From a virus (lineage: Duplodnaviria > Caudoviricetes): DNA of 64,000 bases. A program made the translations under genes and the position numbers. The notes under the pieces were generated by a model. The model was not told the origin of the DNA and ran no database searches. It saw only the letters and a program-made list of their open reading frames with translations. The DNA lies in IMG/VR virus record IMGVR_UViG_3300025724_000001, positions 32,001-96,000 of that record. One strand, given 5' to 3'. Positions 13,557 to 43,473 of this stretch are shown piece after piece; the first letter of the stretch is position 1; every line of letters begins with the position of its first letter.

Positions 13557-16500
13557 ATGCAAAAACATAGAATACATACAGATATTGGCCGAGATCATAA
13601 AATAACTGTACAGATTTCTAGCACGTATGATTTAATGGAGATATTATCTCTTAAATTTTCTCAAAAAGACATATATGCCTCTGGAAAATGTTCAGATTAT
13701 GGTGTTGTTGTGGGTCGAGTCACAGCTAATAGTGGTTTTGGAATACCAAATGCTAAAGTTTCAATTTTTGTGCCTTTATCTGAAATGGATGAAAATGATC
13801 CAGTAATTTCTGCTCTTTATCCATATAAAGATATTAATGATAAAGATGTTAATGGGTATCGATATAATTTATTACCACAAAGAAAACAACATGGGGGACA
13901 TGCACCAACAGGTACCTTTATGGATCAACAAGATATTTTAACACGAGAAGAATGTCTTGAAGTTTTTGAAAAATATTACAATTATACGGTAAAAACAAAT
14001 GATTCTGGTGATTTTATGATATGGGGTGTTCCGATCGGGACACAGGTTTTACATATTGACATTGATTTGTCCGATATGGGTTGTTTTTCCTTGAGACCAT
14101 ATGACTTTATAAAAAAAGGATATGCTACTGATGATTTTGACAGAGTATATGCATTTAAATCAAGTTCTGATATAGATAGTTTACCACAAATTATAACATT
14201 TGATAAAACAATAGATGTTTATCCATTTTGGGGGAATGAGGAATTGTGTGAGATTGGTATTACTAGGACGGATTTTGATTTATCTGAAAGAAATATAAAA
14301 ATAGATCCAGTTGCTTTAATACTCGTTTCAACTATAACGGACGATACTAATGACGCTGTTAAGAGAAATGGGAGAATTAAAAAGAAATCCGGATATAAGT
14401 GTAATTTACAAACAATACCGGGTACTGTTGAGTGTGTTCGTTTTACTGGTAAGTCTGTAATAGGATCAGATGGAATAACAGAGTATCCGGAACTCGAATA
14501 TTTAAACATAACGGACACAATTAATGATGATGGCGTGGTAATGATAGCATTACCAATGAATTTAGATTATATATACACGAATGAATTCGGTGAACAAGAA
14601 ATAACAAACGATTCAAGTAAAGGAATACCAACATCGTCTATTGCAAGATTTAGATTTGACTTGGATTTTAATACATATAAACATGCAACGGCAAAATATC
14701 TTGTTCCAAATATTCGAGAATTTAATCCAAATAATAATGGAACGTCTAATGGTGTTTTAAGTGACAGTGCATTAAGATATGGTGTTCAGTATAGTGAAGG
14801 GATGCTGGCAACATACACCTTTTCGGATGTGTTTGAAGATTATATAAATGTCGTTCCACCAATATCAGGAATGACATTAAGTGATTTAAACTATGATACG
14901 GATGTAAAGGAACACAAAAAAGATTTAATGCTGGGCACGAACAACACACTTAGTCCCGGATCTCCTGAAGATTATTTTTATAAGTTCATTTCAAATAAAG
15001 TATATACTGTTTCGTCATTTCAAGGTACTCATTATGAAACGGCAAAAATACGAGACGCATTTTTAGGGATTAAAGAAATACAACCGAATGTTGAAGATGA
15101 TTGTGCATCAAACACGAATTATTTTCCAACGAATTTTGCGTTTAAGAATCGAACGAAATTTACATTATTATTATCACAAGTTTTATTATTCATACAATTT
15201 ATTTTTTCTGTAATAACAGTAAAATTTGCCGAAATTATTGGAAGAATAGCTTATAGTATTGGAAGAACATTTTTAAGTATCAATATTATGGGTGCTAAAG
15301 TTTTTCCAAAAGTTGGTCAACAACTTATTGATTTTTCTTATAGAACACAAGATAAATATACACAACAATTACCATTAACAATTTATCCTGATTGTGAGGA
15401 ATGTACGGCTGATGATGAAACATTAATTCAAGAATGGACATCATTTAGCGATAGATATTGTCGAATAGCGGAGGTTAAGTTTAAAGTTAACGTAACTCCT
15501 ATTATGGTAGAATTATCAGCAACGGTAGATCAATTACAAACAAGTGGTTCTACGGAACCTGGTGCCAATTTTTATTCGGTATCACCTAATGTGTTTTCTA
15601 GTTTATTGAGTGTGAATGTATATGATTCGTTTTATGGTGATTCTGCTCGGCAAAATACGGATTTGTGCTCGGGAACAACAGAAATGCATTACACACAATT
15701 AAGTGATTTACATAATATAACACTACCATCATCAAATGAACCGAGGTATGGCGCTGAAGTATATTCGTGGTCGTCAAATGTTACTGGAACAACAATAACT
15801 GGAATGACAAGTTTTAGTTCGTTTAGTGGATATTTTAAACCGATAAATAGTAATGAGCCCGAAAATATTGTGATACTTTCACTACCCATGGCTGCTATGT
15901 ATGTTTATTTTAGTAAAGAAGTATGGAATGAGTTAACTGGGATGGATTTTATCCATAATCCAGAACTTGAAGATGAAATATATGATTTATATGCTGTTAT
16001 TAGAATATATGATAGGGCTTTAGTTTCTGAGGAATTTCCGATTACTGGCGAAACAATAAATGTTGAAGTTGGATGTCAAAAATATGATAAATTATATAAT
16101 GAAAATATAATGTTTCAATATTTGTGGACAAATGATCCGGCTTTAGGTTATAATCCTTCATTACCAATTTTACCACCTAATTATTCAGATGATACCGGAT
16201 TTAATGAAAATCGTAATATGCCGTCAACACATCCGTATTTAGTTTCAACGATAATAGGTACAAATAGTACTAGACGATTACCATTTATGCATGATTTTAC
16301 GAGGTATTCAAAAAGACGAAATATTGGTATTCAATACTATGATAGAAAAACCAAATCTGGCTTAAGTGAATTTAGAGACGGATTATTTACAATAATACCC
16401 GTCATTCAGGGTAAGAGTTACAATTTAAAGGCTATTCAAGAATGGTATAGAAGAAAAAGAGTCGGTTTAACGTTTTGTGGTGGTGTTATTAATTATTCAT

Positions 16501-18665
16501 TTATTGATAATTGGATTCATGGTTTACTTTATTTCTTTAAATTCCATAAAAGAATTAGGTGGGATGATGAAAATAATTATGATTTAAATCAACGAGGATC
16601 AAAATATCCAAAAGAGCTTGTTTTTTATAATATTAGAGAAAAAGAGTTTTATTATAGATGTTGTCCTTATGTTTATGTAAACGAACAAGGAATTTTTACA
16701 GGACAAACATATATTCATGATGGACATAATGTACAGGAAATATTACACCCAACAACATTTTTTGATCTTGGTGTTCGAGATGAATTTTTATCTGAAATAT
16801 GTACTGAAGCAATATTTGATCCGACATGTTCTGTGGTAAGAGATATAACATCAACATCATATCAAGATCCGGGGGGTATTGTTGAACATGCAATTAATTA
16901 CCGATTAGATACTACTGGTGCGAAATTTAAAGTTGATGATTTTTTTAGTAACACTCATTATGGTTCAAATATAAAAGTTTTTGATGGTGATGTTACACAA
17001 TTATTATCAATTAATTGTGAAACGGGAATAGAAGCTTTTGATACAGATAGTCCACATTATTCAATGTACAATGGTGAGTATATGGATCCAGAATCACCAG
17101 AATTTGATAATTATTTTTGTTTTGGTTCATTGTTCGGGCCCACACCGATAGATTTTAAATTTGATTTTAATGGAAAACGTATAAGATTATGTTTGAATTA
17201 TAGGCTGGGTGATTTTACTCAAATTGTACCGTTTTATTTGTGGAATAAAAAAGGTGAGGGGTTTGGTCAATATGGGAATGATTCTGATAAACAAACATGG
17301 GATAGGACACAAATAGCCTCAATGCCATTACAACGAATATTTTCTATAAGTGATGTATCTGGTACTACAACAAATTATCTTATGGCGGACGGAGAAGAAG
17401 AATATCTTCTTAAACCGATGACTATAACCCATAACACATTTAGTATGACAGGTGCCACAGAAGATATGTTAGAAAGATTTGAGGTAATTAGTTTAGAACC
17501 ACCAAGCGATTTGAATAATACTATTGGATTTATTGAGGGTGATTTGTGGTTACAAGTTTTAACTTATAGCGGAAGTGATTATCGAAAAGATCCGATAACT
17601 GGTATAATATATGTCGTTGTTAATAAAATGTGGGTACCACAATTCAATAACATTTATGAAGATAATTACAGAGAGAATTTTATACCTCAAACAGCATTGA
17701 ATTATAGTGGTGAAAAACAAGTTCTTTCAACACCATTTTTATTTTATTTTGGTTTAAGGCCGGGCAAAACAGCACTCGATCTTCTAATAAAATCATTTGG
17801 TGATAGTGATGCGTTTATTTCGGATGAATTTGATGAATGCATTATTTCTGATATAATAACACCTACACCACCACCAACACCATCAATTTCGACACCTATA
17901 CCATCAATTTCGATTCCAATACCTTCAGCTTCACTTCCTACACCATCATCACTGCCACCTGATTATGTTACAGTTAATATATTAAATAATGCGTCATCAT
18001 CACTATCAATATCTGAATTATGGATTGGTGGAGAACAACAGCATCCGGATCCACCATCACCAGATTTCCCATATTATCCTGGTGATAGTGGTGTGTTAAT
18101 GTATTATGGTGGTGGGAGATACACAATTGTGGTGGTTATAAATGGGGTATATACAATACCATCATATTTGTCATTAGTCGATAGTAGTGGTGATGTCATT
18201 AATACGACTATAACTAATGAAGCATCTTTCCCATATAGTATTGTTCATTATGGTAGATTAGTAGTTAGTTCTGCACCTGTCACAATATCACTTAATGATG
18301 GTTATCAACCAGTACCATCACCAACACGAACACCATCAATAACAGTATCACGCTCATCTGGCGCGCCACCACCCTCGCCGACACCAACAGTAACACCGAC
18401 TCCGACACCTATTAGTGGGTATATATATGAGGTTATATCTTATGGTTGTTATGATGGTACTAATTGTGATCCACCATCAATGGAAACAGAATATATTATA
18501 AATGAAAATCCTTTAGATGAAGGAATGTATTATAAAGACGGTATTGAACAAAAAGTTTATTATATAATAAAAGAAGAAAGTGGTTTTTTAAATCCTAAAG
18601 TTACACATATTTCTGGATTTGGATATTCATCGTGTAATGGGGCTTGTCAAGAATTACCTGATTAA
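13557..18665 (+). CDS. Large baseplate/tail structural protein with N-terminal carboxypeptidase-regulatory-like domain and C-terminal accessory domains on T/P/S linkers
   Basis: VVGRV...GIPNAKVSI...TNDSGDF; position in baseplate module; TPTP linkers near 17860 and 18310. Confidence 0.7.
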   Translation: MQKHRIHTDIGRDHKITVQISSTYDLMEILSLKFSQKDIYASGKCSDYGVVVGRVTANSGFGIPNAKVSIFVPLSEMDENDPVISALYPYKDINDKDVNGYRYNLLPQRKQHGGHAPTGTFMDQQDILTREECLEVFEKYYNYTVKTNDSGDFMIWGVPIGTQVLHIDIDLSDMGCFSLRPYDFIKKGYATDDFDRVYAFKSSSDIDSLPQIITFDKTIDVYPFWGNEELCEIGITRTDFDLSERNIKIDPVALILVSTITDDTNDAVKRNGRIKKKSGYKCNLQTIPGTVECVRFTGKSVIGSDGITEYPELEYLNITDTINDDGVVMIALPMNLDYIYTNEFGEQEITNDSSKGIPTSSIARFRFDLDFNTYKHATAKYLVPNIREFNPNNNGTSNGVLSDSALRYGVQYSEGMLATYTFSDVFEDYINVVPPISGMTLSDLNYDTDVKEHKKDLMLGTNNTLSPGSPEDYFYKFISNKVYTVSSFQGTHYETAKIRDAFLGIKEIQPNVEDDCASNTNYFPTNFAFKNRTKFTLLLSQVLLFIQFIFSVITVKFAEIIGRIAYSIGRTFLSINIMGAKVFPKVGQQLIDFSYRTQDKYTQQLPLTIYPDCEECTADDETLIQEWTSFSDRYCRIAEVKFKVNVTPIMVELSATVDQLQTSGSTEPGANFYSVSPNVFSSLLSVNVYDSFYGDSARQNTDLCSGTTEMHYTQLSDLHNITLPSSNEPRYGAEVYSWSSNVTGTTITGMTSFSSFSGYFKPINSNEPENIVILSLPMAAMYVYFSKEVWNELTGMDFIHNPELEDEIYDLYAVIRIYDRALVSEEFPITGETINVEVGCQKYDKLYNENIMFQYLWTNDPALGYNPSLPILPPNYSDDTGFNENRNMPSTHPYLVSTIIGTNSTRRLPFMHDFTRYSKRRNIGIQYYDRKTKSGLSEFRDGLFTIIPVIQGKSYNLKAIQEWYRRKRVGLTFCGGVINYSFIDNWIHGLLYFFKFHKRIRWDDENNYDLNQRGSKYPKELVFYNIREKEFYYRCCPYVYVNEQGIFTGQTYIHDGHNVQEILHPTTFFDLGVRDEFLSEICTEAIFDPTCSVVRDITSTSYQDPGGIVEHAINYRLDTTGAKFKVDDFFSNTHYGSNIKVFDGDVTQLLSINCETGIEAFDTDSPHYSMYNGEYMDPESPEFDNYFCFGSLFGPTPIDFKFDFNGKRIRLCLNYRLGDFTQIVPFYLWNKKGEGFGQYGNDSDKQTWDRTQIASMPLQRIFSISDVSGTTTNYLMADGEEEYLLKPMTITHNTFSMTGATEDMLERFEVISLEPPSDLNNTIGFIEGDLWLQVLTYSGSDYRKDPITGIIYVVVNKMWVPQFNNIYEDNYRENFIPQTALNYSGEKQVLSTPFLFYFGLRPGKTALDLLIKSFGDSDAFISDEFDECIISDIITPTPPPTPSISTPIPSISIPIPSASLPTPSSLPPDYVTVNILNNASSSLSISELWIGGEQQHPDPPSPDFPYYPGDSGVLMYYGGGRYTIVVVINGVYTIPSYLSLVDSSGDVINTTITNEASFPYSIVHYGRLVVSSAPVTISLNDGYQPVPSPTRTPSITVSRSSGAPPPSPTPTVTPTPTPISGYIYEVISYGCYDGTNCDPPSMETEYIINENPLDEGMYYKDGIEQKVYYIIKEESGFLNPKVTHISGFGYSSCNGACQELPD

Positions 18666-18674
18666 ATTATGTAA

Positions 18675-21600
18675 ATGAAGAAAAAGAAGATCATATTACC
18701 AAAGCTAAGGTATGAAAACGCACCTGAAACAGATAGTCAAATTTCGATTGGATTCGAGTCTGATAAATCTCTTTTGAGAGGGGATGATAGGGATGTTGTT
18801 TTAAACTTATCTGAACAATTTACAGAAGAACGTGCAAATTGTAAACGATATAAGTTATATGGTAAGATGAGAATGGTTTTTAGAAACCTATATGCTGGTG
18901 CAACATCATATGATTATTTACGTGAAAGATTATCCTTAGTTAGTGATGGGTCGGATAATAATTTCTGTGGTTATCTACCATATAACGAATTTGCGTTTTT
19001 AAGAGATGATATATATTATGAAACCACCGAATCATTGTCGGTTACTTCATTGAGTGGATTTACAGGATTTACCATGGTTACAAGTGGTCCAACTGAACAT
19101 CAAACAATCACATCAGTTACAGCACCATATCACAACTGGAATCTTTATACGAGTTATATTTCGGGTCAAGTTGATAATTTTCCAATGAAATATACATTGT
19201 CTGGCCGAACAAAAATTGAGGGTGAAAATGTTATAACATTTACTAGTGGTGATGGTATACCATTTAGGGTTGAAGAGACTGAAATACATTATGTTTTAAC
19301 AAGTCCGGTACGACATGGAATTAGTCGGGGTGAATACATCTTGATTGATGGAAGGTATTATTATGTGAATTCAGTTGGTGACAACATATTTGATTCTGAA
19401 CATTATGTTATTAATATATTAAAATCACAGTTAAGTGGTGTTACTTTTAATCCGTTAGTTATTGGAAAACGTTGTATAGACATTAAAGATACTGAAAATT
19501 CCACGTCAAAATATTATGTACATAAACATACAATATTAACATCATTGGGTGATTGTATTATTGATAAAGTAGGATTTGAATCACCAATTTGGGAAGACGA
19601 GAAAAAAGTTTTATATGAAAATAGTGTGGGGGATAATGATGTTCTTGTTGTTCGAAATAGGATGGAAGCCGTGTTATTTGATTCATTGGAACCGTTTATT
19701 TTAACTGGAATAACAAATAATTTAGGCCACACACCGATAGAACTTTATACTACAATTATTTTTAGAAATGGAAACGGATATTTCGAATATCCACCAAAAG
19801 TTGGTTATTCGTTTCATATGCATGATTCATGGATAGATGAACATTTTGATGGTTCAAATTCAATTGAAACTGGGTTAACGTCAACGTCATTTACAAGAGA
19901 AGGTTTTGTATATCCATTTTTTTCTGGAAATTCATTATCTAAAGGTTCAGAATTATATGGGGCGTTTGTTGAATATAATCCGAAGGAATTAAAAGAAAGA
20001 ATAATATCAGAATCTTACCATAAAATTGTTAGTAATAAAAATATTTTTAATCATGGCCAAGATCTTGATGAGGTATTTTCTGGTGCAAGTGAAACGAATC
20101 AAATTGGACTTCTATATCAACCACATCATAGATTTAAGTTAAAGGAATTATCACCTTATATTGAAATAGCCGATGATAGTACACCAATATATAATCTTCC
20201 AGAAAACGCAAAGTATTTTCCTAATGAAAAACTTTGGAGGTGGCGAGATGTATATGAAGACGGATATATTGATCCAGATGGTTATGGTGTAGATCATCCA
20301 TATTTAAATAATATTCATTTTGTACATAAAGATATTAATTTTTATATAAGAAACGAAAAAATTTATAAAAATAAAAAAGATGGGGTTATTAATTTTTATA
20401 GGAGAAAGGATGTTGATGAATGTGTTGACGATTCGGTAATTATTAAACGTGGAGACGCCGAAATACCCGAACCATCTATATCGGTTTCCCCATCAGTGTC
20501 GTTAAGTGTAATGCCATCTATTACACCTACGCCAACATTATCTGTTAGCATATCTATAACACCATCAATATCGATGTCATCATCTCAAGGTACGTCGTCG
20601 ACACCGTCACCATCATTGTCATTAACAAGAACTCCGTCGGTTACTAGAACACCAACAATAACACGAACACCAACAATATCATTATCTGCAATTCCGAGTC
20701 AAACACCGAGTGTAACACCCACACAAATTTATCTTCAAATTTATTATATTGATCCGTCTGGTGTGGATGATGCTAGTCGTAGTGGTGGTGTGGGTGAAGA
20801 ATGGGCAACATTATCATATGCTACTAGTAGAGTAACAACACCCGGAAGTCTTATATATGTAAATGCAGGAACTTATTATGAAACATCACAAAGTAATTTA
20901 TCTGCGGGTGTTTCTATTGATGGCGCTGGTAGAACATCTTGTATATTAAGTGCAACAACATCTTTATCGTATTTTGTGTATGCCGCAAGTTCTGCTGGAA
21001 CAAATGGTAATCAATCAATTTCTAATGTAACGTTTGATTGTAATTTATTGGTTGATCGTGGAGTAAGATTTGCCGGTCGAAGTAATGTAACAGTACACGA
21101 TTGTGGTATTGATAATGCAATTTATTATGGATTAATTTTTTCGGATACAACAAGTAGAAGTGTTCATGTAGAACCAACATACTGGGCGACGAACAATAAT
21201 ATATATAATAATTATCTTGTTAATTGTGGTGGTGATAGATGGAATACGAATGATTCGTATTGGGAGGCATATGGTGCTATAGATATATCTGGTCAAGATG
21301 GAATGTTGATATATAATAATAATATCGATAATCAAACTGGTGGTAGATATGCTTATGGTATTAAGGGGTTGAGTTTTGGTGGTTATCATAAAGGATTAAA
21401 GATTTATAATAACAAAATAAGAACAAATATTAGAGATAATGTTGGTGAACAATCATTTGGTTTCAATTTAGAATTATGGACAGGTGTTGGTGGTATTGAA
21501 ATATATGATAATGATTTGAATGGTGCAATTGATATGGGTGGTTATGGTTATTGGGACGACTATTCATATGGATTTGCAATGAAAGTTCATCATAATACTA

Positions 21601-24600
21601 TTATTCAAGATAATTGGCCGACAAATCAACCAGAAACCGGAATAATACTTGAATGTGGCGCAAGAGATGGATGTTATTTTTACAGTAACTGGGTTGAAAA
21701 ATTCTCTACTGGATTTAGTTTGGGCACTACTGCAGCATCTTTAATTCAAGGTTTTAATGGTGTTTGGGTTTATTATAATGTATTTTGTAATTTGGGTTAT
21801 ACATCAGGTGGTGCTGGCGCGGGATTTTATGGTTATAATTTATCTACTGGTGTGACAATTCAGAATTTCAACATATTAAACAACGTCATACATAAAGTAA
21901 ATAACAGCGGGGGTTTGGGTATTGCATATGAATATTCCACACCAAATACATGGGTAAATACAAACATTAAAAATAACATAATATATAATGCATATAGCCC
22001 AATTCAGTTTAGAAATCAAATAGTAAATAGTGTATATATACATAATAATTTAACATATGGTGCAACAAGAACCATTGATAATTCCACATCATGGGGAAAT
22101 AGTACAATAATCACCAGAGAAATATTAAATAATCAAGAAGGTGTAGATCCGTTATTTACTTTGGTTGGAACTGATTTTACACTTACAAGTAATAGTCCTT
22201 GCATAAATACTGGTGTAGATGTAGGATTAATTGAAGATTTTACTGGACAACCGGTTAGTAGTCCACCAGAGATTGGGGCTTATGAATATGTGGTTGTTGT
22301 TTCACAAACACCAACAATCACACCAAGTATTTCTATTAGTAAAACACCGACTAGGACACCAAGTTTATCTGTGTCAAGAACACCTACTATATCATTGTCC
22401 AATACTCCGAGTATAACAATTAGTAGAACGCCAACTATAACGCCAACTATAACACCAACTACAACACCAAGCATAACAATAAGTGTTACTCCAAGTAGTA
22501 CTATTTTGACTGCACGATATGTTTCAAGTAGTGGAGATGATTCAAATGATGGATTAACCGAATCAACACCTTGGAGAACAATAACTAAGGTTAATAACGA
22601 GTTTTCTTCTTTATCGCCAGGAACTGGTATTTTATTTAAACGAGGTGATGTATTTTATGGTACATTAACTATTGGTAGATCAGGCACATTGGGTAATCCA
22701 ATAACGATAGGCTCATATGGTACTGGTTTTAAACCAATTATAGAAGGGTTTACAACGCTTAATTCATGGACGAGGGTTGGTACATCGTCAATATTTTATG
22801 CGTCAGCATCATTTAATATTAATCCAAATGTAGGACCACTAGTAACTATAGATGGTATGATAATAGAAAAGGGAAAATATCCAAATATGGGGTATAATAC
22901 AATTTCAACAGTAGTAACAAGTCCTGCACCACCGATTGGCAGTCCAGTGACGATTACTGATTCTTCTTTATCATCAACACCTAATTGGACGGGAGCTGAA
23001 ATTGTTATAAGATATGATAGATGGACATTAATTAGATCTATTATTACCGATCATTCTGGAACATCATTAACGTTTAACACACCGTATGCTAATTTACCAT
23101 ATACTGGATGGGGATATTTTATACAAAATCATATTGACACATTAAATGAATTGGGTGATTGGTATTATGATTCTGTGAATCAAAGGATATATATGCATTT
23201 TGGTTCAGGAACACCTGGGGAACATATTATACGGGCAACAACATTAGATCATACTGTTTATAATAATGGTTATTTAAGAAGGTTTATTATAATTGATGGT
23301 ATTCATTTTAGAGGTACAGCTGGAGATAATATTCATATATGGAATAATGTATCAAATATAGATATTAAAAAATGTCGAATAGAATATTCTGGTGGTAATG
23401 CTATCTATCAACATGGTGGTAGTGGTAGTATGATTGATAATAATGACATTTTATTTTCTAGTCATAATGCTGTTCATATATTATTCCCAAATACTACAAC
23501 AATAATCAATAATAGAATTTATTATACAGGACATTATCTTGGATATACTACCACTGGAGATACAGCTTGTTTTGTTGGAATTAAATGTGGATCATCATCT
23601 AATGGTAATAATCTCATTGAGAATAATAAAATATATAATACGGGTTATTTACCAATTAATTTTGGTGGTGCGGGTAGTATTGTTAGGAGAAATTATATAC
23701 ACACATATTGTTATAATAAAGATGATGGGGCGGGAATTTACATATTTAATGACAGATCAGGTGGGAAGTTAGTTGAAGAGAATATAGTATTAAATGCTGT
23801 TGGTGCTGGTGCAGGTACAAATAATCCTAATTCATCATCAGCGAATGGATTATATACTGATGGTGGAACTGCAAATGTTACATTTATAAGAAATATTGTT
23901 GGAAATGTAACCAGACAAGGTTATCATGGAAATCTTCCCGTAAATGTTACTTTAACAGGAAATACGTTCTTCCAATGTAGAGAATTAATGGGTTTATGGA
24001 AATTTGGTAATGCAGGATTTTGGGATGGAACTGGCACATTTATTACAGGATTAAATATTCAACATAATAAGTTTATTTCTACAGATCTTAATAGAAATTT
24101 AGCAAAGGGTATATTTTATGAAAATTCTACAACTGAGTTAAATGGTGCTGACATCTACGATGAAATAGAACGTTTGGGCGTTTGGAATAATAACTACTAT
24201 TATACTAATGAAGAGTGTTTTGTATATATAGCACATAATTTATATCAAACAAACGCACCATATAATCTAGAAAGATGGAAAAGTGATTTTGGACAAGATC
24301 TAAATTCAAGTGTGGTTGTTAGTGAAAATCAATATACATTAAATTCTATAGGTCCTAATTTGATTACAAATGGAACATTTACTTCTGGTATAACGGGTTG
24401 GACGGCTTCTTCATCAGATTTAACTCTTGACTGGTATTCACCAGGAATTGGCGATGGGGGTGCTTTAAGTTTAACAAGTACACAAAATAATTTTTATTAT
24501 TGGTGGTGGAATAATATTAATGCTGCTGTAGCACATATTATTGGGGGTGTCGTGAATAATTCAAAACATTATTTATTACGTTTTCTTGGTAGAAGTACAA

Positions 24601-28977: not shown

Positions 28978-29793
28978 ATGGATATATTAAAAAGTAAATC
29001 GAATAGAAATATCCTTATTAGTGAGGAAACGAGGTTTGGGATTGACCTTGGATGGGAAGAGAATTTTCAAGAATTTGAACGTGAAACATTAAAATCTATT
29101 ATAAACCCAATAGATAATTTTGAAACTGTTCGTTATATTCATAATGAATATATTGGTATAAGTGGAATATCTCAAAATGATATTTGGTATCATTTTTATT
29201 TTTTTAATAGTGATAATCCACCAACATATTTTGGTGGTTTAAATTATGAGTATGTCGGGTTATCTCCTGAACAAAACTCAATAATAACAAAGTCGGAAAA
29301 CACTAGTTTTTTTAGCCTTGAATTTTATAAAGCACCGAGTGGTGAAATTATTGATAGTAATAATAGGAAATTAGTTTTCACAAAACACCTACCAATTCCA
29401 TTAGGTGAAAAAGTGTTTTATACACCAATAGGTCGGGAGATTTATTTACCAATTTTTACTGGAAACAATTATAGAAATAAAGAAAATATGTTTTTATTCT
29501 GGTTTCAAGATGATACAGTTTTGAAGGGTTCGATTTATAAAGGTGATACTTTTTACGTAACAGCAAAATATTATAATGCTATAGATGGTACGATATTAAG
29601 TTTTTTGAATTCACCTAAATCATATTATGATATTGTAAATGAATCTACAGACATTTATCATAGAATGGTGGTAGATAAAAATGATTATTCGTATATTGTT
29701 TATTCTGGAAATACTAGTGAAGAAAGAATAGGTTTAGACAATCAACCAGTATCATTTTATGCCTACGGATATTACACAAAATCTTTAATATAA
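28978..29793 (+). CDS. Structural hypothetical protein
   Basis: Within the tail module; Tyr/Phe-rich beta composition. Confidence 0.65.
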   Translation: MDILKSKSNRNILISEETRFGIDLGWEENFQEFERETLKSIINPIDNFETVRYIHNEYIGISGISQNDIWYHFYFFNSDNPPTYFGGLNYEYVGLSPEQNSIITKSENTSFFSLEFYKAPSGEIIDSNNRKLVFTKHLPIPLGEKVFYTPIGREIYLPIFTGNNYRNKENMFLFWFQDDTVLKGSIYKGDTFYVTAKYYNAIDGTILSFLNSPKSYYDIVNESTDIYHRMVVDKNDYSYIVYSGNTSEERIGLDNQPVSFYAYGYYTKSLI

Positions 29794-34800: not shown

Positions 34801-37800
34801 CAAACATATATGGCTATATACCAACAATTGTGGGTGATGAAAGTGGCAATAGTATGCCGGCATATATACAATTTAATTGTGATGAACCCATTAATGTTCT
34901 TCCGATGCAATCTGAATGTAGTTATTCGATTACTGGTTTTAGTGAGACAAGTTCACATGAATTAATTTTATCAGATGCGGCAAACACCGAAGTTCACTTG
35001 AAAATTAACGGATTACAATACGTTGTTACAGACTGGACGGATACTTTGAGTGGATTTACGGCGTGGCCAAAAGTTGAATATCGGCCAAGTTATGATTACG
35101 GACTAAAAAAAGGTACATATGTGTTAAAGGTGAATGGTGGTGGTGTACCTACTACATACCAAGAACTTGAAGTAGCGATAAGTAATGGTAATATTATCGA
35201 AGAGTTAGTTGAAAATATTGTGAGCGGTGATACATTATTATCAATGACATTAAAATCCGCGTCAGAACTTACCGCGTCACAGTTTCAACTAGCCCCTGTT
35301 AATGGTTATCAATTTGCTTTTGACTATCGTTTTGTTAGTATTGAAAATATTGTATGTTTTAGCTCAATTAAAACGTATTTAATTAATAATAAATTTAAGG
35401 TTTTACCAACAAGTAAAGTTTTGGTTTATAGTGTAATCGAATGTGTTCGTCCATCGTTTCTTTTTAAATATCCCGAAGATTTGTACGTAGAAGTAAGTGG
35501 TTCAACAAGCGCAGAATATTTGATTACTGAAACAGGCTTTCCAATTAAAGTAACATCAGTTGAATTTACTAATTGTGATGTTCATGACATTTATTATCAA
35601 TTAAATACACACGAAGATACGAGTAATGTTGTGTTATTTGATGGTATGTTAACTGGTGATGATAAAATAATTGTATCGTATGTTAAAGAAGATATCACCA
35701 TTTTTGATTTTCAATTACGTCAGTACTGTATAGATTCTGCTCGTGGTGTTGATGAGGACCATCCATTAAATACTTTAACAAATAGACCATCAACGTTTAC
35801 TGGGTGGTGTTATAATGGCATTCCACCAACACCTTCAGCAACTCCAGTAATAAGTCCGTCAAATACACCGATGGTGACTAGAACACCAACTACAACACCC
35901 GTAATAGTTTCATCTACTTTATCAGTAACGAGCACACCAAGTGCATCACTAGTTCTTTCAGCAACACCAACGGTAACACCTAGTGTTACGTTTAGTGGTG
36001 TTCCATCTATCACGCCAAGTATTTCGGTTAGTAGAACGCCAACAATAACACCTAGTGTTACGTTTAGTGGTGTTCCATCCGTCACGCCAAGTATTTCGGT
36101 TAGTAGAACGCCAACAATAACACCTAGTATTTCGGTTAGTAGAACGCCAACAATAACACCTAGTATTTCGGTTAGTAGAACGCCAACTATATCAGTATCG
36201 AATACTCCTGGTGTATCTATAACACCATCAATAAGTGTTAGTCCTAGTATTTCAGTTAGTAGAACACCAACCAGAACACCTAGTATTTCAGTTAGTAGAA
36301 CACCAACACCTACTATTAGTGTTTCATTATCGCAAGTACCATCTGTCACGCCTAGTATTTCAATTAGTAGAACACCAACAAGGACACCAAGTATAACAAT
36401 TAGTAGAACACCGAGTGCGACAATACCGATGTACACTGCTTGTGGTACATATAGTTTAGGGTTAAATGGTGTTAGTGGTGGTTCTTTTTTAAGTGCTGGT
36501 ATATTAACTGGCACAACAACACCAAGTGATTATGTTATTGAATGGAGAATGAATTCGACTTCAGGAACTGTAGTCTTTACGACGGGTTCACGTTATGAAT
36601 ATGATGCTACAATTCAAAGAGAACATCCATTTGTTGATGAAATTGTCGAGTCAGGAACGTTATATCCGGTGATAAGAAAGATATTAATTGGTGGATACAC
36701 CTATACACCAACTTATGAATCCGGAAATAGATTAAGTTCGGATTTATTAACTTGCTTACCATCAGTGGTTATTACACCAATAACATGTGATAGTACATAT
36801 GGTGTTGATCCAGATAATGTTTATCCGTTTAATTTAATTTATGAAAACAAAAATGATGGTGGATTAAATAAATCAAGAATATTCACATATCAATTATATA
36901 ATGATACCAAATATATGGCGGTTGAATTTTTTGGTTTTGAAGTTTCTGAACAATTAAAAATATATTATTGTACAACAAACAATCCAAATGGAACTTTAAT
37001 TGAAAATTGGGTTCATGGTTTATATTATACGGGTAGTACTCATTTAACTACTTATGTGTATTTAAGAACATCAATTTATAGTGGTATGTCTTGGAATGGT
37101 GGTGGTTTGTATCCAGTTAATTATCCAACAAATCCTCGAATTGCATATATAAATTATTCAAATTGTAATCCATTAAGATTTGTTTTTAAAATGACAGATT
37201 TTACGTGGACTAACGGTGATTATTTAAAATTTGAAATTATTGGTAGTGTATTTGAACCAGACAAAATAAACACGAACTGGAGACTTAGACTTGATTGTGT
37301 TGACGAACTTGATGTGTTGTCATGTGATTATAATCTTAGTAGTGATGTAAATAAAATAAATTCAACACCGGTAATGGTTTATTCGGGAGATCCTGAATGT
37401 AATTATATTGTTTATTATAACACGTTATCAGGTTATACATTACCAGACAGAACGAACCCAAATACTCCATGGATGCATAGATACATAACATCTAATATTC
37501 TTTCATCTGGAAATTCTATAGGTGGGTTTGAAAATACACAAATTGGAATATTATGTCCTTGGAAAATATCATCTGCCTATTCTTTAGTAATATATAACAC
37601 AGGATATAATACCTGTATGAATATGGCTGCGGGGCAAACAATTACAATCACAAAAGACACAACATCAATAACATTTACATTTAGTGACATTGCTGACTTT
37701 AATGATGCACAAAGTGATTATTCACAAATAACTGGTTCTACAGAATGGGCAACATGGGCTTCATATCCCGATACGAATGTGAGTTATTATGGTTATTATA

Positions 37801-39575
37801 GAATAATGTCGAGAATAGCTTCGTCATGTGGTGATGACTATGTTGATATTGATTGGTGTTTCTTTAGAACAGCACCTGTAGTGTTTAATTCAGTTAATAA
37901 AACAATGAATATTGTGTTTGTAATTCCAACAAACAATATAACACCAACACAATGTGATAATAGTTATCAGATGGTTAATTCTGTAATAACTATGTTAACA
38001 CAGACAAAAAATAGAGTTATACCTACCGGATTAAATGTTACATCTTGTAGGTATGAAGGGCTTTTAATAGCATATCGTCTTACTAAAATTACATCACAAA
38101 CAAATCCAACAGCACGCCGTTATAGAATAACAACAATAGAAGATGTGTTTGTAAATGGTTTATGTGATTTGTCAAATTATGGTTTTTGTAAGGGTATTGA
38201 CACTGGTTATCCGACAGCTTGGGTGATGTATAAATTTTATGATAGAATTAGATTTGGTGATGTTTCCACACATGAAACACGAATGAATACATGGTGTCTC
38301 GATAGGGCTAAGGGATTACGAACAGATAATTGTAATGATTTTGGTGAAAGTAATTGGGAAACTGTGTATTGTGCATCGGGTTCAACACCATCACCAAGTA
38401 TAACTCCGAGTGCATCAACACCAACACCAAGTGGGGCTGGTGTATATCAATATGATATTGTGACACACACCACACACGCTTCTAGTGATGGTGCTTGTGC
38501 GTCTATGAATCTTCCTGATGATACAATTTATATGGCAACATCTTCACCCATTATTGGATATTATGCATATAGTGATGCGGCATTGTCGTTTCCTTTCCAA
38601 GGTGATCAACGCTGGTATTACACAAAAAGTAATACTATTGAATATGCAGTACAAATAATGATTGATGGTTATATAAATGATGTGGTTAATTGTAGTACAA
38701 CATTACCAACACCATCACCTACCATATCTTTAAGTAAAACACCGTTTCCGTCACGATCTATAACACCAACACCATCACCTACGATATCATTTTCTAGAAC
38801 ACCTAGTACGACACCAACAAAGGCTATTGTTGCTGTAACAAATAATGCTAGCATACCATTGATTGAGAATGTTATGGTAAATGATGGATCAATTTCTTCT
38901 AGTGGTTTTCCGTTGAGTTATTTAGATACTTTAACAGGAACTACATCAAATTTGGGTTCACAGAATATTGATGTTTATATTTCATATTGGGATGGTGGTT
39001 CTAATTATATTAAATTTATTGATAGCAATAATATTACACATTATAGTTCACTAGTTGGTAGTTCACCATATGGAGAAATAACACACACACTTTCTAGTGT
39101 TTATATTTCATTATCTAGGCCGATTATACTTTCGTTGGAAGATGGAACACCGCCGGCACCTAGTTCTACACCAAGTGTCACAAGAACTATTACACGCACA
39201 CCAAGTTCTAGTAGTGGTGCTAGCCCAACACCATCACGAACAGTAACACCAACACCAACACCAAGTCCATTTGGCCCGACAATTAATGTTGTTAATGCCG
39301 GAACATACAGTATTACTAATATACAAGTAAATAATATAACAATACCAGATATTAATTTTCCAATTTTATCATCACAGTCAGCCATTGGGCACACAACAGT
39401 TTATAGTACTAGTACATCAATTACAGTCACATTAAGTCAGGGTTCATTTGGGGAAAGTATAACAGTAAATAATGATTGTCAAGGTACTGATGGTGGTGGT
39501 GATTATTCCTTTATAGGTGTTAATACAACTGTAGGTACAATAACAATTGGTTATATGACAGGGTCATGTCAATAA
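31869..39575 (+). CDS. Giant baseplate protein (P2 gpI/T4 gp7-like core) with degenerate Hint domain and accessory domains
   Basis: LLKNLAETLG...YRRILVNLAFLYKSKGTRTAIEFFL wedge motif; Hint-like block 35100-35660; mucin-like linkers. Confidence 0.75.
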   Translation: MARYKVPSQAASGADSFSDDLVGRQITEGSSLMTGTNFIIEKTIPERNTKEFRTQPFSDFLTLDDIVDEKHVIEDFDNTKKEIKFNNDKKNADRSLYGSLKQRIRVAINNIISKYPAAIQVNSTFIGGVNYTAENIVYSSQTNTTEFDVPYKLIYNPLEIILKTPKSGILPETDNNIRNFYSSFTKYVIDLTGETFNIISYSEPDSNNRITLRVDGNCFNGYSAFTKNYLIRPTDGIVENFYEQLDDLERVLINRETNPKFTAAFNVPRDSSDGSSTETVTINVNWPISNDGWNISIVGLLFDYYIDKISSLADEVDNYKSNLIVRFLTSPQLYEFDTDDKKIEAVFQIYGRAFDNVKKFIDNIAYMRNVSYDGINNVPDILLKNLAETLGLSTINLFTEKTLEESLYTRHDTQYDGVSLGTNLIEAEYEFYRRILVNLAFLYKSKGTRTAIEFFLKFIGAPEPMIRLDEYVYKVDGSLPSQTIEDDIRNVIQSQVSSSVMTWDENLSGYTLTRFSGETRLTRDKYPVDEDTGFPRGIEYPDGSMFFQKGAGWYKRTLHHRSSEVIDYDNSNLTGRTKVIKTKPAPFTYGEDYFDVYRQLPGLNYGYSLVSNVDNKKIELVDDEAISRLTLNRKNVNVFLSADRAIDYDIYRKSRDLMLNFGVLTPQTGVTFAEFLSNVTNDIISNSHVVKYQNTYDSLLRVYWAYQNQILFTPYNYISVNEFINRLSPYWVDIIEQFIPATTLWLGGNLIENSIFNRSKYKHKRPVGSTAYIEVLYPDFETVIVEDLRTFIGGGTVDNTSYESYFRGLTSFYGVSYTITLEINGTVYSRQTGNLRTFTGFTPTSPCTRLTPTTESIPLICDYVGSTLFSEINAIENMRDEWKDIVNTLVEEISTDENSEYTVTAVFCNTPDNVEYVAFTVTPKDNTRIIESFDYYFTPSYGLYHDETNMEARVEPINTLIFSGDSNCELYTDINILTNIYGYIPTIVGDESGNSMPAYIQFNCDEPINVLPMQSECSYSITGFSETSSHELILSDAANTEVHLKINGLQYVVTDWTDTLSGFTAWPKVEYRPSYDYGLKKGTYVLKVNGGGVPTTYQELEVAISNGNIIEELVENIVSGDTLLSMTLKSASELTASQFQLAPVNGYQFAFDYRFVSIENIVCFSSIKTYLINNKFKVLPTSKVLVYSVIECVRPSFLFKYPEDLYVEVSGSTSAEYLITETGFPIKVTSVEFTNCDVHDIYYQLNTHEDTSNVVLFDGMLTGDDKIIVSYVKEDITIFDFQLRQYCIDSARGVDEDHPLNTLTNRPSTFTGWCYNGIPPTPSATPVISPSNTPMVTRTPTTTPVIVSSTLSVTSTPSASLVLSATPTVTPSVTFSGVPSITPSISVSRTPTITPSVTFSGVPSVTPSISVSRTPTITPSISVSRTPTITPSISVSRTPTISVSNTPGVSITPSISVSPSISVSRTPTRTPSISVSRTPTPTISVSLSQVPSVTPSISISRTPTRTPSITISRTPSATIPMYTACGTYSLGLNGVSGGSFLSAGILTGTTTPSDYVIEWRMNSTSGTVVFTTGSRYEYDATIQREHPFVDEIVESGTLYPVIRKILIGGYTYTPTYESGNRLSSDLLTCLPSVVITPITCDSTYGVDPDNVYPFNLIYENKNDGGLNKSRIFTYQLYNDTKYMAVEFFGFEVSEQLKIYYCTTNNPNGTLIENWVHGLYYTGSTHLTTYVYLRTSIYSGMSWNGGGLYPVNYPTNPRIAYINYSNCNPLRFVFKMTDFTWTNGDYLKFEIIGSVFEPDKINTNWRLRLDCVDELDVLSCDYNLSSDVNKINSTPVMVYSGDPECNYIVYYNTLSGYTLPDRTNPNTPWMHRYITSNILSSGNSIGGFENTQIGILCPWKISSAYSLVIYNTGYNTCMNMAAGQTITITKDTTSITFTFSDIADFNDAQSDYSQITGSTEWATWASYPDTNVSYYGYYRIMSRIASSCGDDYVDIDWCFFRTAPVVFNSVNKTMNIVFVIPTNNITPTQCDNSYQMVNSVITMLTQTKNRVIPTGLNVTSCRYEGLLIAYRLTKITSQTNPTARRYRITTIEDVFVNGLCDLSNYGFCKGIDTGYPTAWVMYKFYDRIRFGDVSTHETRMNTWCLDRAKGLRTDNCNDFGESNWETVYCASGSTPSPSITPSASTPTPSGAGVYQYDIVTHTTHASSDGACASMNLPDDTIYMATSSPIIGYYAYSDAALSFPFQGDQRWYYTKSNTIEYAVQIMIDGYINDVVNCSTTLPTPSPTISLSKTPFPSRSITPTPSPTISFSRTPSTTPTKAIVAVTNNASIPLIENVMVNDGSISSSGFPLSYLDTLTGTTSNLGSQNIDVYISYWDGGSNYIKFIDSNNITHYSSLVGSSPYGEITHTLSSVYISLSRPIILSLEDGTPPAPSSTPSVTRTITRTPSSSSGASPTPSRTVTPTPTPSPFGPTINVVNAGTYSITNIQVNNITIPDINFPILSSQSAIGHTTVYSTSTSITVTLSQGSFGESITVNNDCQGTDGGGDYSFIGVNTTVGTITIGYMTGSCQ
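35976..36190 (+). repeat. Near-perfect coding tandem repeats (2 x 72 bp, then 36-bp units encoding TPSISVSRTPTI)
   Basis: acacctagtgttacgtttagtggtgttcca... at 35976 and 36048; acacctagtatttcggttagtagaacgccaac at 36120 and 36156. Confidence 0.9.
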
Positions 39576-39595: not shown

Positions 39596-41437
39596 ATGGG
39601 ACAAATTAGAGTCATATTAACAGGAATAAGCACATCGAACGATTTTCGAGTATATTACAAACGCGACGATACGGGTTATGGACCATATCCAATAACAGGA
39701 CCAAGTTGGTTAAATTATCCGAACGAAATGGATCCTGATGGTATATTTCCTGCTAGTACATCAGTTATTCGGTTATATGAAACAGTTGTCACATTTGATA
39801 ATGATTATGTTTATTGGATAAAACTTGAAGATGTTAATGATTCAAAAAGATATCTTATTAAAAACATTAAAATCCATGGTGATAATTTCTGTCCGGATAT
39901 TCAAGTCACACCAACAGTAACACCAACAATATCAATAACACCCACACCATCATCGACACCACAAATGACACCAACACCGTCATTAAGTCCGCAAGCATCA
40001 CCGACACCATCACCAACTCAGGGTGTTTCGATAACACCATCACCATCGTTATCTACGACGCCGTCGATTAGTATGTCATTATCACCAACTCGAACACCGT
40101 CGGTTTCACAATCAGCAAGTGTAGATAGTGAAATATATTTTGCATCATTAAGTGGTAATGATGTTGTTATGGGAGTAAACAATGCTCAGGGTAGAACTTT
40201 TAATATTAATTTATATTATCATTTAACCGCAGAAGTCGATAATAATTGGAGTTGTAATCCTAATATACCAAGTGGAAATGCATTACAGACAACAACGAGA
40301 ATTCTTGTATCAACTAATGGTGGTGCAACATGGACAAATAGGGACAGTGTGAGGGCAGAAATACCTGGTGGCGATTGTCAGGATGATTATCAGGAAAAAT
40401 TTGGATATACGACTATTACAAATATAACAAACGTATCTCAAGTTAAAGTACGAATAGAGTATGATTGTTATCAAACACAAGATATTAGTAGGGGTACTGG
40501 ATATGTAACCATATCCTCAGCAATTGTTGTTAATGGTGGTGGTAATGCTGTAGTGATATGTAATGATGAATTTTCTGCCACATGTGATAATCCAAACGAG
40601 CCGGTTAAGATTTTGTGCGGTGGATTACCACCATCACCAATGCCGTCACCACCGCCACCATCACCAAGTTCAACACCGACAAGGGCGTTAATTGTTGTTG
40701 AGAATAACGCTGCTATACCTTCAATTAGTAATGTTATGGTAAATGATGGGCCAATATCTTCTGGTGGGTTCCCATTGACATATTTAGGAATATTAACTGG
40801 ATCTACATCAGATTTGGGTTCACAAAATATTGATATTTATATTACATATTGGGAAGGTGGTTCTAATTATATTAAGTTAACTGATAGTAATAATGTCACA
40901 TATTATAGTAGTTTGATAGGAGAAACGCCAGGTGGTGAAATAACACATATAATTCCTAGTATTTATATTTCATTATCCAGACCGGTCAGACTTTCATTGG
41001 AAGACGGTACACCACCTTCACCAAGCGTCACACCGAGTGTTACAAGAACAGTTACACGTACACCAAGTCCAAGTTTTGGTGCTAGTACTACTCCATCACG
41101 AACAGTAACACCAACACCATCACCATCACCATTTGGACCAACAGTTATTATATATAATATGGGAACATATAATATTAACGAGGTAACAATAGGTACAATA
41201 ACAGTTTCGGGAATTAATTTTCCAATTGTTCCTTCAACTTGGGCTATGGGACATACAACAGTATATAGTACCAACACGGTAGTTGACGTTATGTTAAATC
41301 AAGGTTCAATTGGTGAAAGTGTTTCGGTAAATAATAGTTGTGTAGAAAGTCAAGGAGAAGGTACTTTTACTTTTATTGGTGTTGATACTACTACAGGTCC
41401 GGTTACAATAACTTATGCTATGGGATCATGTGAATAA
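39596..41437 (+). CDS. Accessory tail protein with S/T/P linkers; C-terminal two domains paralogous to those of the upstream gene
   Basis: NNA.IP.I.NVMVNDG.ISS.GFPL...GSC shared with 38820-39575. Confidence 0.7.
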
Positions 41438-41493
41438 TGATGAAAAAATAAATGTTTATATTTATAAGAATAATAGGAATAACGTAAAAAGAA

Positions 41494-43473
41494 ATGGGGT
41501 TTTTAGTTGCAAATGTTTCAGAAAATTTAGCTGGTCGAATAACGAATAAAGGAAGAAAGAAAATTGCACAGGGCAATTTCAATATTACTTATTTTCAAGT
41601 GGGCGATTCTGAATATGACTATACACTACCGTTTTATGAATTTAATGGAGATGAAAATCCGGGTCAAAAAGTGTTGATGCCATTTGATAAAGATTCTCAA
41701 GTTAAATATCCTTACAAGTATAGTGAATCGTCAATAAGTGGGACAACATATGGAACACCAGTACAATCAGTTCAAATGGATAGAATTACAAATTATTTAA
41801 GTGCTGTTGGTTTTGTTTCGGATTATAATGAATCAACGATTAATTCGACATATGAGCCTATAAATATTTCTAGAATAAATGGAAGCAATATTTTGTCTGT
41901 TTCAAACGGTACATTATATTATAATGTTGAATTTATTACAATATTATTTGGTGATTTAGGAATTGGTGGAACAATATCTGAGAATGTACATTCATCATTA
42001 ACATATAAGATTATTGATATTGTAAATGACAATTTACATTTGGATAGACCGATGCCGAATTTATCATTTTTGTCTGGTGATGTAACTATAGTATCTAACG
42101 CTTTATCTTCATTTAATCCGTGTATAGATCAAGAATATTCATGGGATTTGAATACTGTTTGGAGTAAAACACCAGCTGGGTTGGATCCAGCAATAGTTCC
42201 ATTAACAACATTCGATAGTAATGTTTTTGTATCAGCAAAAGAATATTTTGGATATAATACTTCATCAGGACAAACAGATAACACGTTAACAACAATTACA
42301 AATACTTTTGGGAATAAAATTATTGTCCCGCCAGAGGAACAACATTCTATTAGTATTTTACACTATTCTAAAGTGGGTGTAGCATCGTTAGACCCTGATT
42401 TACCATATAAATATGAAGATTACATCGGGCATAATGAGGATGAAACAGAATATTTTGAAATTTATATTCCTTTCATATTATATGATAGAAATACAACCAC
42501 AACTATTGGTGCAAGATTTTTTATGGATACTGAAGATTTTTATATAAATTCAACAGCAATAGATACCAGACCAAATCAAATGAAGTTTAGATATTTAATT
42601 GACGAACAGGGTGTGAAAGTTGGTAAAGTTTTTGTAAATCATAAAGTAATTATTTTTGATGATCAAGAAATTGTTGCGGCATTGGATTATAAATCGAATA
42701 GGAATTATACATTACCAATACCACAAATTTCAACTATTCCAATTGATTCAAAATGTGATGATCATGGAAACTCATTAATTCCATTATTAAGTGGTGGTAC
42801 TACTGGTCAAACTGTATTTGTCACATATCTTTTACAACATCAAGCGTCGGGTGATTCACAATTATCTGGTATGTGTTGTAATTACTATTCTAAAATTTCA
42901 AATAGTATCGTTGATAGTGATGTTTCAATTAAATTTGATACTGATGATTTTCAATTCATGAGGTCAACTTTTTCTGATGTAACAAATGGATATATTGCAG
43001 ACACTTTCCAAATACTTGTACAGGTTGTCAATACGGGTGAGCAGCCAGATCCAACATTATGGAAAATAATTGATTTTACAGATCAGATACCTAACCATAC
43101 TCCCGGAACATTAATAAATCCGACAACTCTTCGTGATACACGATTTATTATCACTAGTTATGATTATGAAAATGCTGGATTATATGTTATACCAGAAACA
43201 CATTTTGGTGATTTTCAATCATTTCCGGGTAGCATTAAAGTTGCGAGGGTAACAGATATGGAAGTTATGAGATTTTTGGTGAATTTACCTTCCGGTTATT
43301 TTGAAACAACACAGAATCCATCATATGATACCACAGCAATACCCGCAATACCAAAAAGAATTACAGAAGTGGCTTTATTAGATGAAAATAAAGACGTACT
43401 TGTTATTGCTAAAGCGTCAAGTCCAATAGAAAAGGTTGGTACAATAGTTTTAGCAGTTCAATTAGATATTTAA
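41494..43473 (+). CDS. Baseplate/tail-fibre attachment protein (tail-collar-fibre-like domain split by a large insertion)
   Basis: N-terminal ITNKGRKKIA...ITYFQVGD and C-terminal ITEVALLDE...LVIAK motifs. Confidence 0.6.
   Translation: MGFLVANVSENLAGRITNKGRKKIAQGNFNITYFQVGDSEYDYTLPFYEFNGDENPGQKVLMPFDKDSQVKYPYKYSESSISGTTYGTPVQSVQMDRITNYLSAVGFVSDYNESTINSTYEPINISRINGSNILSVSNGTLYYNVEFITILFGDLGIGGTISENVHSSLTYKIIDIVNDNLHLDRPMPNLSFLSGDVTIVSNALSSFNPCIDQEYSWDLNTVWSKTPAGLDPAIVPLTTFDSNVFVSAKEYFGYNTSSGQTDNTLTTITNTFGNKIIVPPEEQHSISILHYSKVGVASLDPDLPYKYEDYIGHNEDETEYFEIYIPFILYDRNTTTTIGARFFMDTEDFYINSTAIDTRPNQMKFRYLIDEQGVKVGKVFVNHKVIIFDDQEIVAALDYKSNRNYTLPIPQISTIPIDSKCDDHGNSLIPLLSGGTTGQTVFVTYLLQHQASGDSQLSGMCCNYYSKISNSIVDSDVSIKFDTDDFQFMRSTFSDVTNGYIADTFQILVQVVNTGEQPDPTLWKIIDFTDQIPNHTPGTLINPTTLRDTRFIITSYDYENAGLYVIPETHFGDFQSFPGSIKVARVTDMEVMRFLVNLPSGYFETTQNPSYDTTAIPAIPKRITEVALLDENKDVLVIAKASSPIEKVGTIVLAVQLDI

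Follow-up and report, generated by a model that had tools for sequence, protein, structure and literature searches.

A 64,000-nucleotide stretch of viral DNA (hereafter the window), corresponding to bases 32001-96000 of a 104,720-bp IMG/VR contig (record IMGVR_UViG_3300025724_000001; CheckV completeness, 34%), carries part of a T4-like tail module whose distal proteins contain a short word, [ST]-G-x-T, usually preceded by a hydrophobic residue, far in excess of what their composition predicts. With a probability of about 0.45, hydrophobic-[ST]-G-x-T may be a recognition tag for modification, glycosylation being the leading candidate. It would be specific to one lineage, a clade of uncultured T4-like phages with genomes of about 300 kb, and selected in those of their virion proteins that are exposed externally. 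Most plausibly, the word would provide acceptor sites for a phage-directed O-linked modification, foremost glycosylation, that would be added to Ser or Thr in short loops following a β-strand. We infer an enzyme that reads the word, and any candidate for it, or for a group that it attaches, is put forward below on the same footing.

The number of [ST]-G-x-T words in each protein was compared with that in whole-protein shuffles (500 per protein); open reading frames (ORFs) are named here by their first position in the window, and the observed and expected counts are listed in Table 1. None of the shuffles reached the observed count in ORFs 13557, 18675, 29796 and 31869, and a single one did so in ORF 41494. 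When the ten tail and baseplate-distal ORFs were pooled, 69 words were found against 16.2-16.8 expected from shuffling within blocks of 15, 25, 40 or 80 residues (maximum of 30 in 400 shuffles). Thus, the enrichment proposed in the initial annotation of this DNA holds over composition. In the same ten ORFs, a hydrophobic residue preceded the motif in 52 cases, against 5.4 expected. Among all 8000 patterns of the form a-b-x-c, TG.T ranked 9th and SG.T 13th, and all of the patterns above them represented low complexity of the S/T/P/R linkers. The block shuffles and the ranking in pattern space rule out an artefact of composition or of local low complexity. A motif at the DNA level is also ruled out: the position-0 Ser codons are AGY in 15 and TCN in 19 cases, and the Gly and Thr+3 codons follow the background. 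Because position-0 Ser is drawn from both codon families, selection is at the level of the protein. Some codon preference was seen at position 0, where Thr is encoded by ACT in 21 of 35 cases (ACT makes up 24% in the same proteins) and where TCA is avoided for Ser (15% versus 35%); this may be a codon-pair effect ahead of GGN.

All of the instances listed in the initial annotation are present, and they had been under-counted, there being 22 in ORF 18675, 15 in ORF 31869 and 9 in ORF 13557. Its reading of NrdJ (ORF 6884), a helicase (ORF 5145) and SbcC (ORF 48431) as free of the motif was borne out, as was that of the RecA-like ORF 2634, in which the P-loop TGKT is the sole occurrence; altogether, about thirty non-structural ORFs have 2 motifs, the P-loop included. 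The collagen-like ORF 61504 had been counted as a carrier, and does not exceed its composition (Table 1). The word is depleted in a 2358-aa collagen fibre downstream (9 observed, 41.6 expected), and the collagen-like fibres thus have no excess of the word over their composition. As to its extent, the motif had been placed between positions 13557 and 43473; it reaches further, to a 462-aa ORF outside the window that is among the richest carriers.

Over shuffles, [ST]G.T was enriched 4.8-fold (z = 14) and phi[ST]G.T, in which phi is a hydrophobic residue, 9.7-fold. Partial words occurred at chance levels ([ST]G.[^T], 1.03-fold; [^ST]G.T, 0.79-fold; [ST]..T, 0.99-fold). The turn-like variants [ND]G.T, [ST]G.[IV] and [ST]G.S gave 1.02-, 0.90- and 1.45-fold, and the reversed word, T.G[ST], gave 0.90-fold. 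The excess is a genuine three-part effect, in which [ST], Gly and Thr+3 are all needed. A generic turn is disfavoured because it would accept Asn or Asp at position 0, yet [ND]G.T is found at chance. Position 0 is Ser in 34 and Thr in 35 of the sites. Position -1 is hydrophobic in 77% of them versus a background of 36%, in agreement with the early remark that the motif usually follows a hydrophobic or aromatic residue; the other flanking positions are at background.

The spacing between motifs is mostly irregular, from 4 to more than 100 residues, with no regular period or extended conserved unit; a few of the instances in ORF 18675 lie inside β-helix coils (ITGHTGNTISYSGNT). BLASTP between the carriers returned only the S/T/P linkers and one common C-terminal domain, and hhalign of the two families formed by the homologues of ORF 29796 and of the 462-aa ORF gave a probability of 1.2%. 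These two comparisons rule out a repeat domain common to the carriers. Irregular spacing, the lack of a flanking consensus past position -1 and carrier families with no detectable homology all sustain the view that the word is not a structural repeat. A full-text search of the literature found no description of [ST]-G-x-T as a sequon or as a fibre motif.

The distribution of the word over whole genomes was followed in relatives of the phage, in which virion orthologues were located with T4 queries. In G002, a complete relative (335,630 bp), 8 tail-region ORFs account for the excess (94 observed, 12.9 expected), the other 374 ORFs being at chance (112 and 104), and in G001 (93% complete) 9 ORFs are enriched (113 and 25.3). 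The sheath orthologues are enriched (7 observed for 1.14 expected, and 11 for 1.63), and the major capsid protein orthologues are weak carriers (3 for 0.6, and 4 for 0.55). Zero motifs were found in the orthologues of the portal, tube, gp25, prohead protease and terminase proteins. Residues 356-654 of T4 gp18 form the core that makes up the inner layer of the sheath, and 20 of the 21 sites in three sheath orthologues lie outside the C-terminal core aligning to these residues. Since the fibres, outer baseplate, outer sheath and capsid carry the word, and the portal, tube and enzymes are without it, the rule is exposure on the assembled virion and not simply being a virion protein. Accordingly, the description of the motif as pervasive in virion proteins stands for externally exposed proteins and fails for others. 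ORFs 30937 and 39596 also show no enrichment.

The same excess recurs at 66 IMG/VR loci around homologues of ORF 29796, with ratios of observed to expected counts of 3.0-12.1 (median, 6.0; 3318 versus 587 in total). Metagenomic homologues of ORF 29796 and of the 462-aa ORF number in the hundreds, with 9.0 motifs per homologue versus 0.82 expected in the first family and 8.1 versus 0.57 in the second. In the family of ORF 29796 (about 370 aa), the word appears in about 25 alignment columns, each in at least three sequences. Certain sites are near-invariant, such as I-T-G-x-T at residue 296, found in 42 of 43 homologues, and many others come and go. The density of motifs is kept in the homologue families despite this positional turnover. 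Across 50 loci, the motifs of the ORF 29796 homologue co-vary weakly with those of the neighbouring genes (Spearman coefficient of 0.34 for density, P = 0.014, and of 0.17 for observed/expected, P = 0.24; phylogeny not controlled). No motif-less member of the clade was found and, with no loss of the motif in any member, the clade provides no natural knock-out.

A search of the phage collection with the DNA, and with ORF 29796 as a protein query, found no cultured close relatives. The closest database relatives of the gp6-like protein encoded in the window are remote, at 26-30% identity, and belong to the huge phage LR756508, Flavobacterium phage immuto and Microcystis phage Mel-JY01. In tail sets compared by local shuffles, the word was enriched 4.45-fold in the contig and 4.76-fold in G002; the values were 1.27-fold in T4, 1.05-fold in LR756508, 1.08-fold in Mel-JY01 and 1.72-fold in immuto. 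The T4 tail and virion proteins have 17 words for 12.4 expected, and 2 of the five-residue word versus 3.4 expected. The block downstream of gp6 shows no excess in LR756508 (3 for 2.5) and Mel-JY01 (5 for 4.7) and a mild one in immuto (22 for 12.7). Genome-wide, immuto and Mel-JY01 have zero enriched ORFs, with 42 words for 40.5 expected overall in Mel-JY01. A generic turn would lead one to expect a similar level in the β-rich tail proteins of other phages, and this expectation fails, with values of 1.05- to 1.27-fold in T4, LR756508 and Mel-JY01.

A different word, [ST]GS, is enriched in the tail blocks of Mel-JY01 (6.9-fold; z = 16; 45 versus 6.5) and immuto (4.2-fold; z = 12). Elsewhere the values are lower (contig, 1.0-fold; G002, 1.8-fold; T4, 0.7-fold; LR756508, 1.8-fold, not significant). 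Each of these related phages, alike in their gp25-gp6 baseplate core, thus has an outer-tail [ST]-G word of its own. Such lineage-own words fit a co-evolving recognition system; lineage-specific domain families could also yield them. In immuto, [ST]GS lies partly within a regular fibre repeat of the SHAEG type, and a structural explanation is thereby available for this lineage.

Two AlphaFold2 models place the word in its local structure. That of the 462-aa protein is confident (predicted local distance difference test score, pLDDT, 78.7; predicted template modelling score, pTM, 0.82), and its C-terminal half is a ConA/CBM40-like jelly roll. Seven of the eight motifs are in the N-terminal domain (pLDDT of about 90), the eighth, in the C-terminal half, being at a strand end. 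Three of the seven come directly after the end of a strand, one lies ahead of a helix whose N-cap position is taken by Thr+3, one leads from the end of a helix into a strand, and two are in coil. The model of ORF 29796 is weaker (pLDDT 62.5); in it, a tight hairpin loop of four residues (65-68) has a pLDDT of about 90. In the two models together, 6-7 of 14 sites begin directly after a strand end. In homologues that do not have the word, Asp, Asn, Ser, Thr or a gap stands in for Gly, Asn for the residue at position 0, and Ser, Val or Ile for Thr+3. As this replacement spectrum is turn-like, the sites are turns or loops with or without the word.

Enzymes that could act on such sites are encoded by several relatives. 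Each of five large relatives has 4-6 GT2 matches, with 3-5 GT1 matches besides in four of them; neither was found in G004 (75% complete). In G002, a 20-kb glycosyltransferase island (285-306 kb; L117:5267-19965, L118:958-6040) comprises a radical-SAM gene, two GT9 genes, a GT1-FkbM fusion, sugar O-methyltransferases, four GT2-type genes and two GT1 genes, with a collagen/Peptidase_S74 fibre gene embedded in its middle. Both GT9 proteins are full-length homologues of TibC (PDB 4RAP, E values of 1e-50 and 3e-52), with the four iron-finger Cys residues aligned; the LPS heptosyltransferase WaaC is matched only at an E value of 0.06. TibC is a cytoplasmic protein O-heptosyltransferase that modifies Ser, and not Thr, in N-S-G-G-A-type turns of TibA and AIDA-I; the sites reported, N-S-G-G-A and T-S-A-A-V, are Ser-only (PMC4358343). 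That TibC acts on Ser-Gly turns makes an [ST]-G acceptor word biochemically plausible. TibC-like genes are present in G002 (two copies) and G003, and were not found in the partial genomes G004-G009. Only a GT2 gene (G002 134170-134949) and a weak GT-B match (138791-140014) are common to G001 and G002 without occurring in immuto or Mel-JY01. In G001 and G002, these clade-specific genes are surrounded by metabolic genes and precede the first motif-rich gene by 3-9 kb; synteny would place the block just beyond the 5' end of the contig.

A number of observations weigh against a modification tag. The replacement spectrum is as expected for an ordinary turn, and the hydrophobic residue at position -1 (in 77% of sites), together with a conserved hydrophobic x at several conserved sites, suggests partial burial. 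No glycosyltransferase, sugar-nucleotide or kinase family was found on the 104.7-kb contig, which represents about 34% of the genome. TibC is reportedly Ser-only, yet Ser (34) and Thr (35) share position 0 of the motif. TibC-like genes are absent from the motif-rich G001 (93% complete), and the motif-poor Mel-JY01 carries one (E value of 8e-91 against the G002 enzyme). In addition, the regions flanking 21 TibC-like loci of other viral contigs are not rich in the motif. Generic GT1 and GT2 genes occur in all of the large phages tested, motif-poor ones included, and a core operon (GT1, 459 aa; GT1, 420 aa; GT2, 206 aa; GT2, 370 aa) is kept in G001, immuto and Mel-JY01. Finally, no specific enzyme tracks the word across genomes.

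SG.T and TG.T are both enriched irrespective of TibC status. We rejected a TibC-like enzyme as the partner of the word on the double dissociation between G001, with the motif and without TibC, and Mel-JY01, with TibC and without the motif, and on the flanks just described. The presence of generic GT1/GT2 genes was likewise rejected as a discriminator, since motif-poor phages have them, the core four-gene operon included. The copies of this operon in immuto and Mel-JY01 show 35-52% identity, and its GT1 has a homologue in LR756508 (38% identity). Hence, of the genes that the initial annotation suggested should be sought elsewhere in the genome, none is on the contig, and the many glycosyltransferase genes of the relatives include none that tracks the motif; its corollary that relatives lacking the enzymes would lack the motif was contradicted for TibC-like genes, and generic GT1/GT2 genes are uninformative in this regard. 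The core GT1 homologue of LR756508 (LR756508.1 305423-306742) has one in-frame TGA, and may be a pseudogene or have a recoded stop. The TibC-like gene of Mel-JY01 (PP395634.1, 4747-8430) codes for a 1234-aa fusion of GT1 and TibC-like domains in a cultured cyanophage, so that Mel-JY01 could serve as a culturable model for tests of virion glycosylation.

It is quite possible that the word is instead a purely structural micro-motif, in which a strand ends on a hydrophobic residue, Ser/Thr-Gly forms a turn and the β-branched Thr opens the next element, inherited by lineage-specific β-rich domains. The proportion of modelled sites directly after a strand end, the tight hairpin loop at residues 65-68 of ORF 29796, the near-invariant site at residue 296, the turn-like replacement spectra and the hydrophobic residue at -1 would all be accounted for in this way, as would the mild excess in T4 gp36/gp37 and in the immuto tailspikes, the partial placement of immuto [ST]GS in SHAEG-type repeats and, above all, the lack of an enzyme that tracks the word. 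Because the outer tail proteins are lineage-specific families, a shared ancestral domain habit is also possible. A turn of this kind does not readily explain, however, a three-part specificity that excludes Asn and Asp at position 0, the mixed secondary-structure contexts of the sites, carriers with no detectable homology, the lack of excess in the tail blocks of T4, LR756508 and Mel-JY01, or the presence of the word in about 25 columns of a single 370-aa family. A role for the word outside modification, such as recognition by a fibre-assembly chaperone or a decoration protein or a direct part in binding glycans on the host surface, seems unlikely. The word-like specificity and the restriction to the exposed tail fit it equally, and there are lectin-like folds among the carriers (PF13385 in ORF 18675 and the CBM40/ConA-like C-terminal domain of the contig 607-1995 protein). 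No candidate partner emerged, however; most sites are outside the lectin-like domains (7 of 8 are N-terminal in the 462-aa protein), and capsid and sheath carry the word too. It is very improbable that the sites are phospho-acceptors of a small kinase-like protein whose gene lies between those for gp25 and gp6. In the ESM Atlas, this protein is closest to the named clusters Phage_T7_kinase (17% of members) and Kinase-PolyVal, its structure matches an ABC1/RIO1 kinase cluster (template modelling score of 0.50), phmmer against the PDB returned the SteC kinase at an E value of 0.22, and the motif-poor immuto, LR756508 and Mel-JY01 have no ORF at that position. The ORF has no Pfam match even at an E value of 0.1, however, and no homologue in the motif-rich relatives G001-G004 and G006. 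Lacking homologues in motif-rich relatives, it cannot explain a clade-wide motif, and it was rejected as the modifying enzyme.

A tag for modification draws its support from the three-part specificity, the exclusion of Asn and Asp, the mixed contexts, the unrelated families, the turnover at kept density, the confinement to exposed proteins and a word that changes from one lineage to another. The initial view that the motif behaves like a recognition sequon is supported in that it is a protein-level word, found in unrelated families and only on exposed proteins, and falls short in that no enzyme tracks it. Rather tentatively, we suggest that every exposed virion protein (fibres, outer baseplate, outer sheath and capsid) could be O-modified through the five-residue sequon, and that the sister lineages could have shifted to [ST]-G-S.

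Glycosyltransferases encoded by mycobacteriophages reportedly modify the capsid and the tail tube. The likeness is in phage-encoded glycosyltransferases that coat exposed virion proteins; here, glycosylation is putative, and the hosts and lineages are others. To our knowledge, no defined internal sequon is known for mycobacteriophage virion glycosylation. Eukaryotic O-glycosylation has sequons of comparable form, S-G-x-G for xylosyltransferase and C-x-x-G-x-[TS]-G-x-x-C for EOGT, both enzymes of the secretory pathway. These share with the word a hydroxyl acceptor followed by Gly, often after an aromatic residue and at a β-hairpin, a resemblance in word shape only. Short Gly-containing words also recur in phage fibres, as SHAEG-type repeats, coils of the PbH1 β-helix and collagen G-X-Y. 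Unlike these, the word described here is mostly irregularly spaced, has no conserved flanks past position -1 and is not above composition in the collagen-like fibres. In the system of the bacterial autotransporter heptosyltransferases (BAHT; TibC-TibA and Aah-AIDA-I of E. coli; PDB 4RAP/4RB4; PMC4358343), a cytoplasmic enzyme hyper-glycosylates many Ser residues followed by Gly or another small residue in short turns of β-rich surface adhesins, and the relatives G002 and G003 encode full-length TibC homologues with the iron-finger cysteines. The BAHT acceptors are secreted autotransporters, whereas the putative acceptors here are phage tail, sheath and capsid proteins. Also unlike BAHT, the word has Thr as often as Ser, requires Thr+3 and is not within a 19-residue repeat, and the TibC-like genes do not co-occur with it.

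The contig has a GC content of about 32%. Its T4-like tail module has the sheath, the tube and a T4_baseplate protein 5' of the window, and the gp25-like and gp6-like genes inside it. These two are followed by a run of very large ORFs with no assigned family, except for the β-helix and LamG-like domains of ORF 18675 (Table 1). Replication, nucleotide-metabolism and lysis genes are also present, and the 3' end encodes collagen-like fibres (G-[ST]-S). Low complexity of the S/T/P/R linkers is strong in ORFs 18675-28964, 31869-39575 and 39596-41437 (TPS, 62 versus 5.6; RTP, 34 versus 1.95). The similar ends of ORFs 31869 and 39596 (66% identity over their last 250 residues) suggest a duplicated or exchanged C-terminal module for receptor binding. 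Upstream (5') of the window, a family-B DNA polymerase (1280 aa; L001:2402-6244, minus strand) and an SNF2-type helicase (989 aa; L001:7740-10709, minus strand) have LAGLIDADG/Hom_end matches in mid-protein, suggesting that both have inteins. A free-standing gene for a 527-aa homing-endonuclease-like protein (L001:17227-18810, plus strand), with DUF7487, Vsr and Mom-family matches, lies between the tube and baseplate genes.

Table 1. Features of the tail region, with observed and expected counts of [ST]-G-x-T. Positions are those of the window except where the contig is named.
Feature	Position	Strand	Observed/expected	Other evidence
gp25-like baseplate wedge subunit, module anchor	10516..10968	+	0/0.05	phrog_261, E 2e-15; BLASTP against T4 gp25, E 2e-12
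227-aa kinase-like ORF	10968-11651	+		between the gp25-like and gp6-like genes; weak kinase leads
gp6-like (Baseplate_J) wedge subunit	11663..13495	+	0/0.39	phrog_219, E 6e-21; PF04865
1702-aa baseplate-distal protein, motif-rich	13557..18665	+	9/1.43	no Pfam or PHROG family
3429-aa fibre or adhesin with β-helix and LamG-like domains, motif-rich	18675..28964	+	22/6.27	PF13229, PF13385
271-aa protein, marginal	28978..29793	+	1/0.11	
369-aa protein, motif-rich	29796..30905	+	6/0.43	AlphaFold2 model me6814a772eda
310-aa neighbour, motif-free	30937..31869	+	0/0.21	
2568-aa fibre protein with S/T/P linkers, motif-rich	31869..39575	+	15/3.85	
613-aa protein, not enriched	39596..41437	+	1/1.48	C-terminal 250 aa common with ORF 31869 (66% identity)
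659-aa protein	41494..43473	+	4/0.61	
Collagen-like G-[ST]-S fibre, cut by the window's end (1087 aa in the contig)	61504..64000	+	7/5.35	PF01391, E 1e-38
462-aa ORF outside the window, among the richest carriers	contig 607-1995		8/0.49	

If the word is purely structural, it would still be a strong lineage marker for unannotated outer tail proteins, and would help to find fibres in metagenomic phage contigs. If it is a sequon, phage surface glycosylation, or a related modification, would become predictable from sequence and would offer a concrete target for mass spectrometry in metaproteomes. Large environmental phages would then protect or adjust their adsorption apparatus by means of a coat, the acceptor code of which shifts by lineage, with a bearing on host range, particle stability and the evasion of immunity or proteases. 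Among phages, the word would be the first defined sequon for virion modification, and an evolving one.

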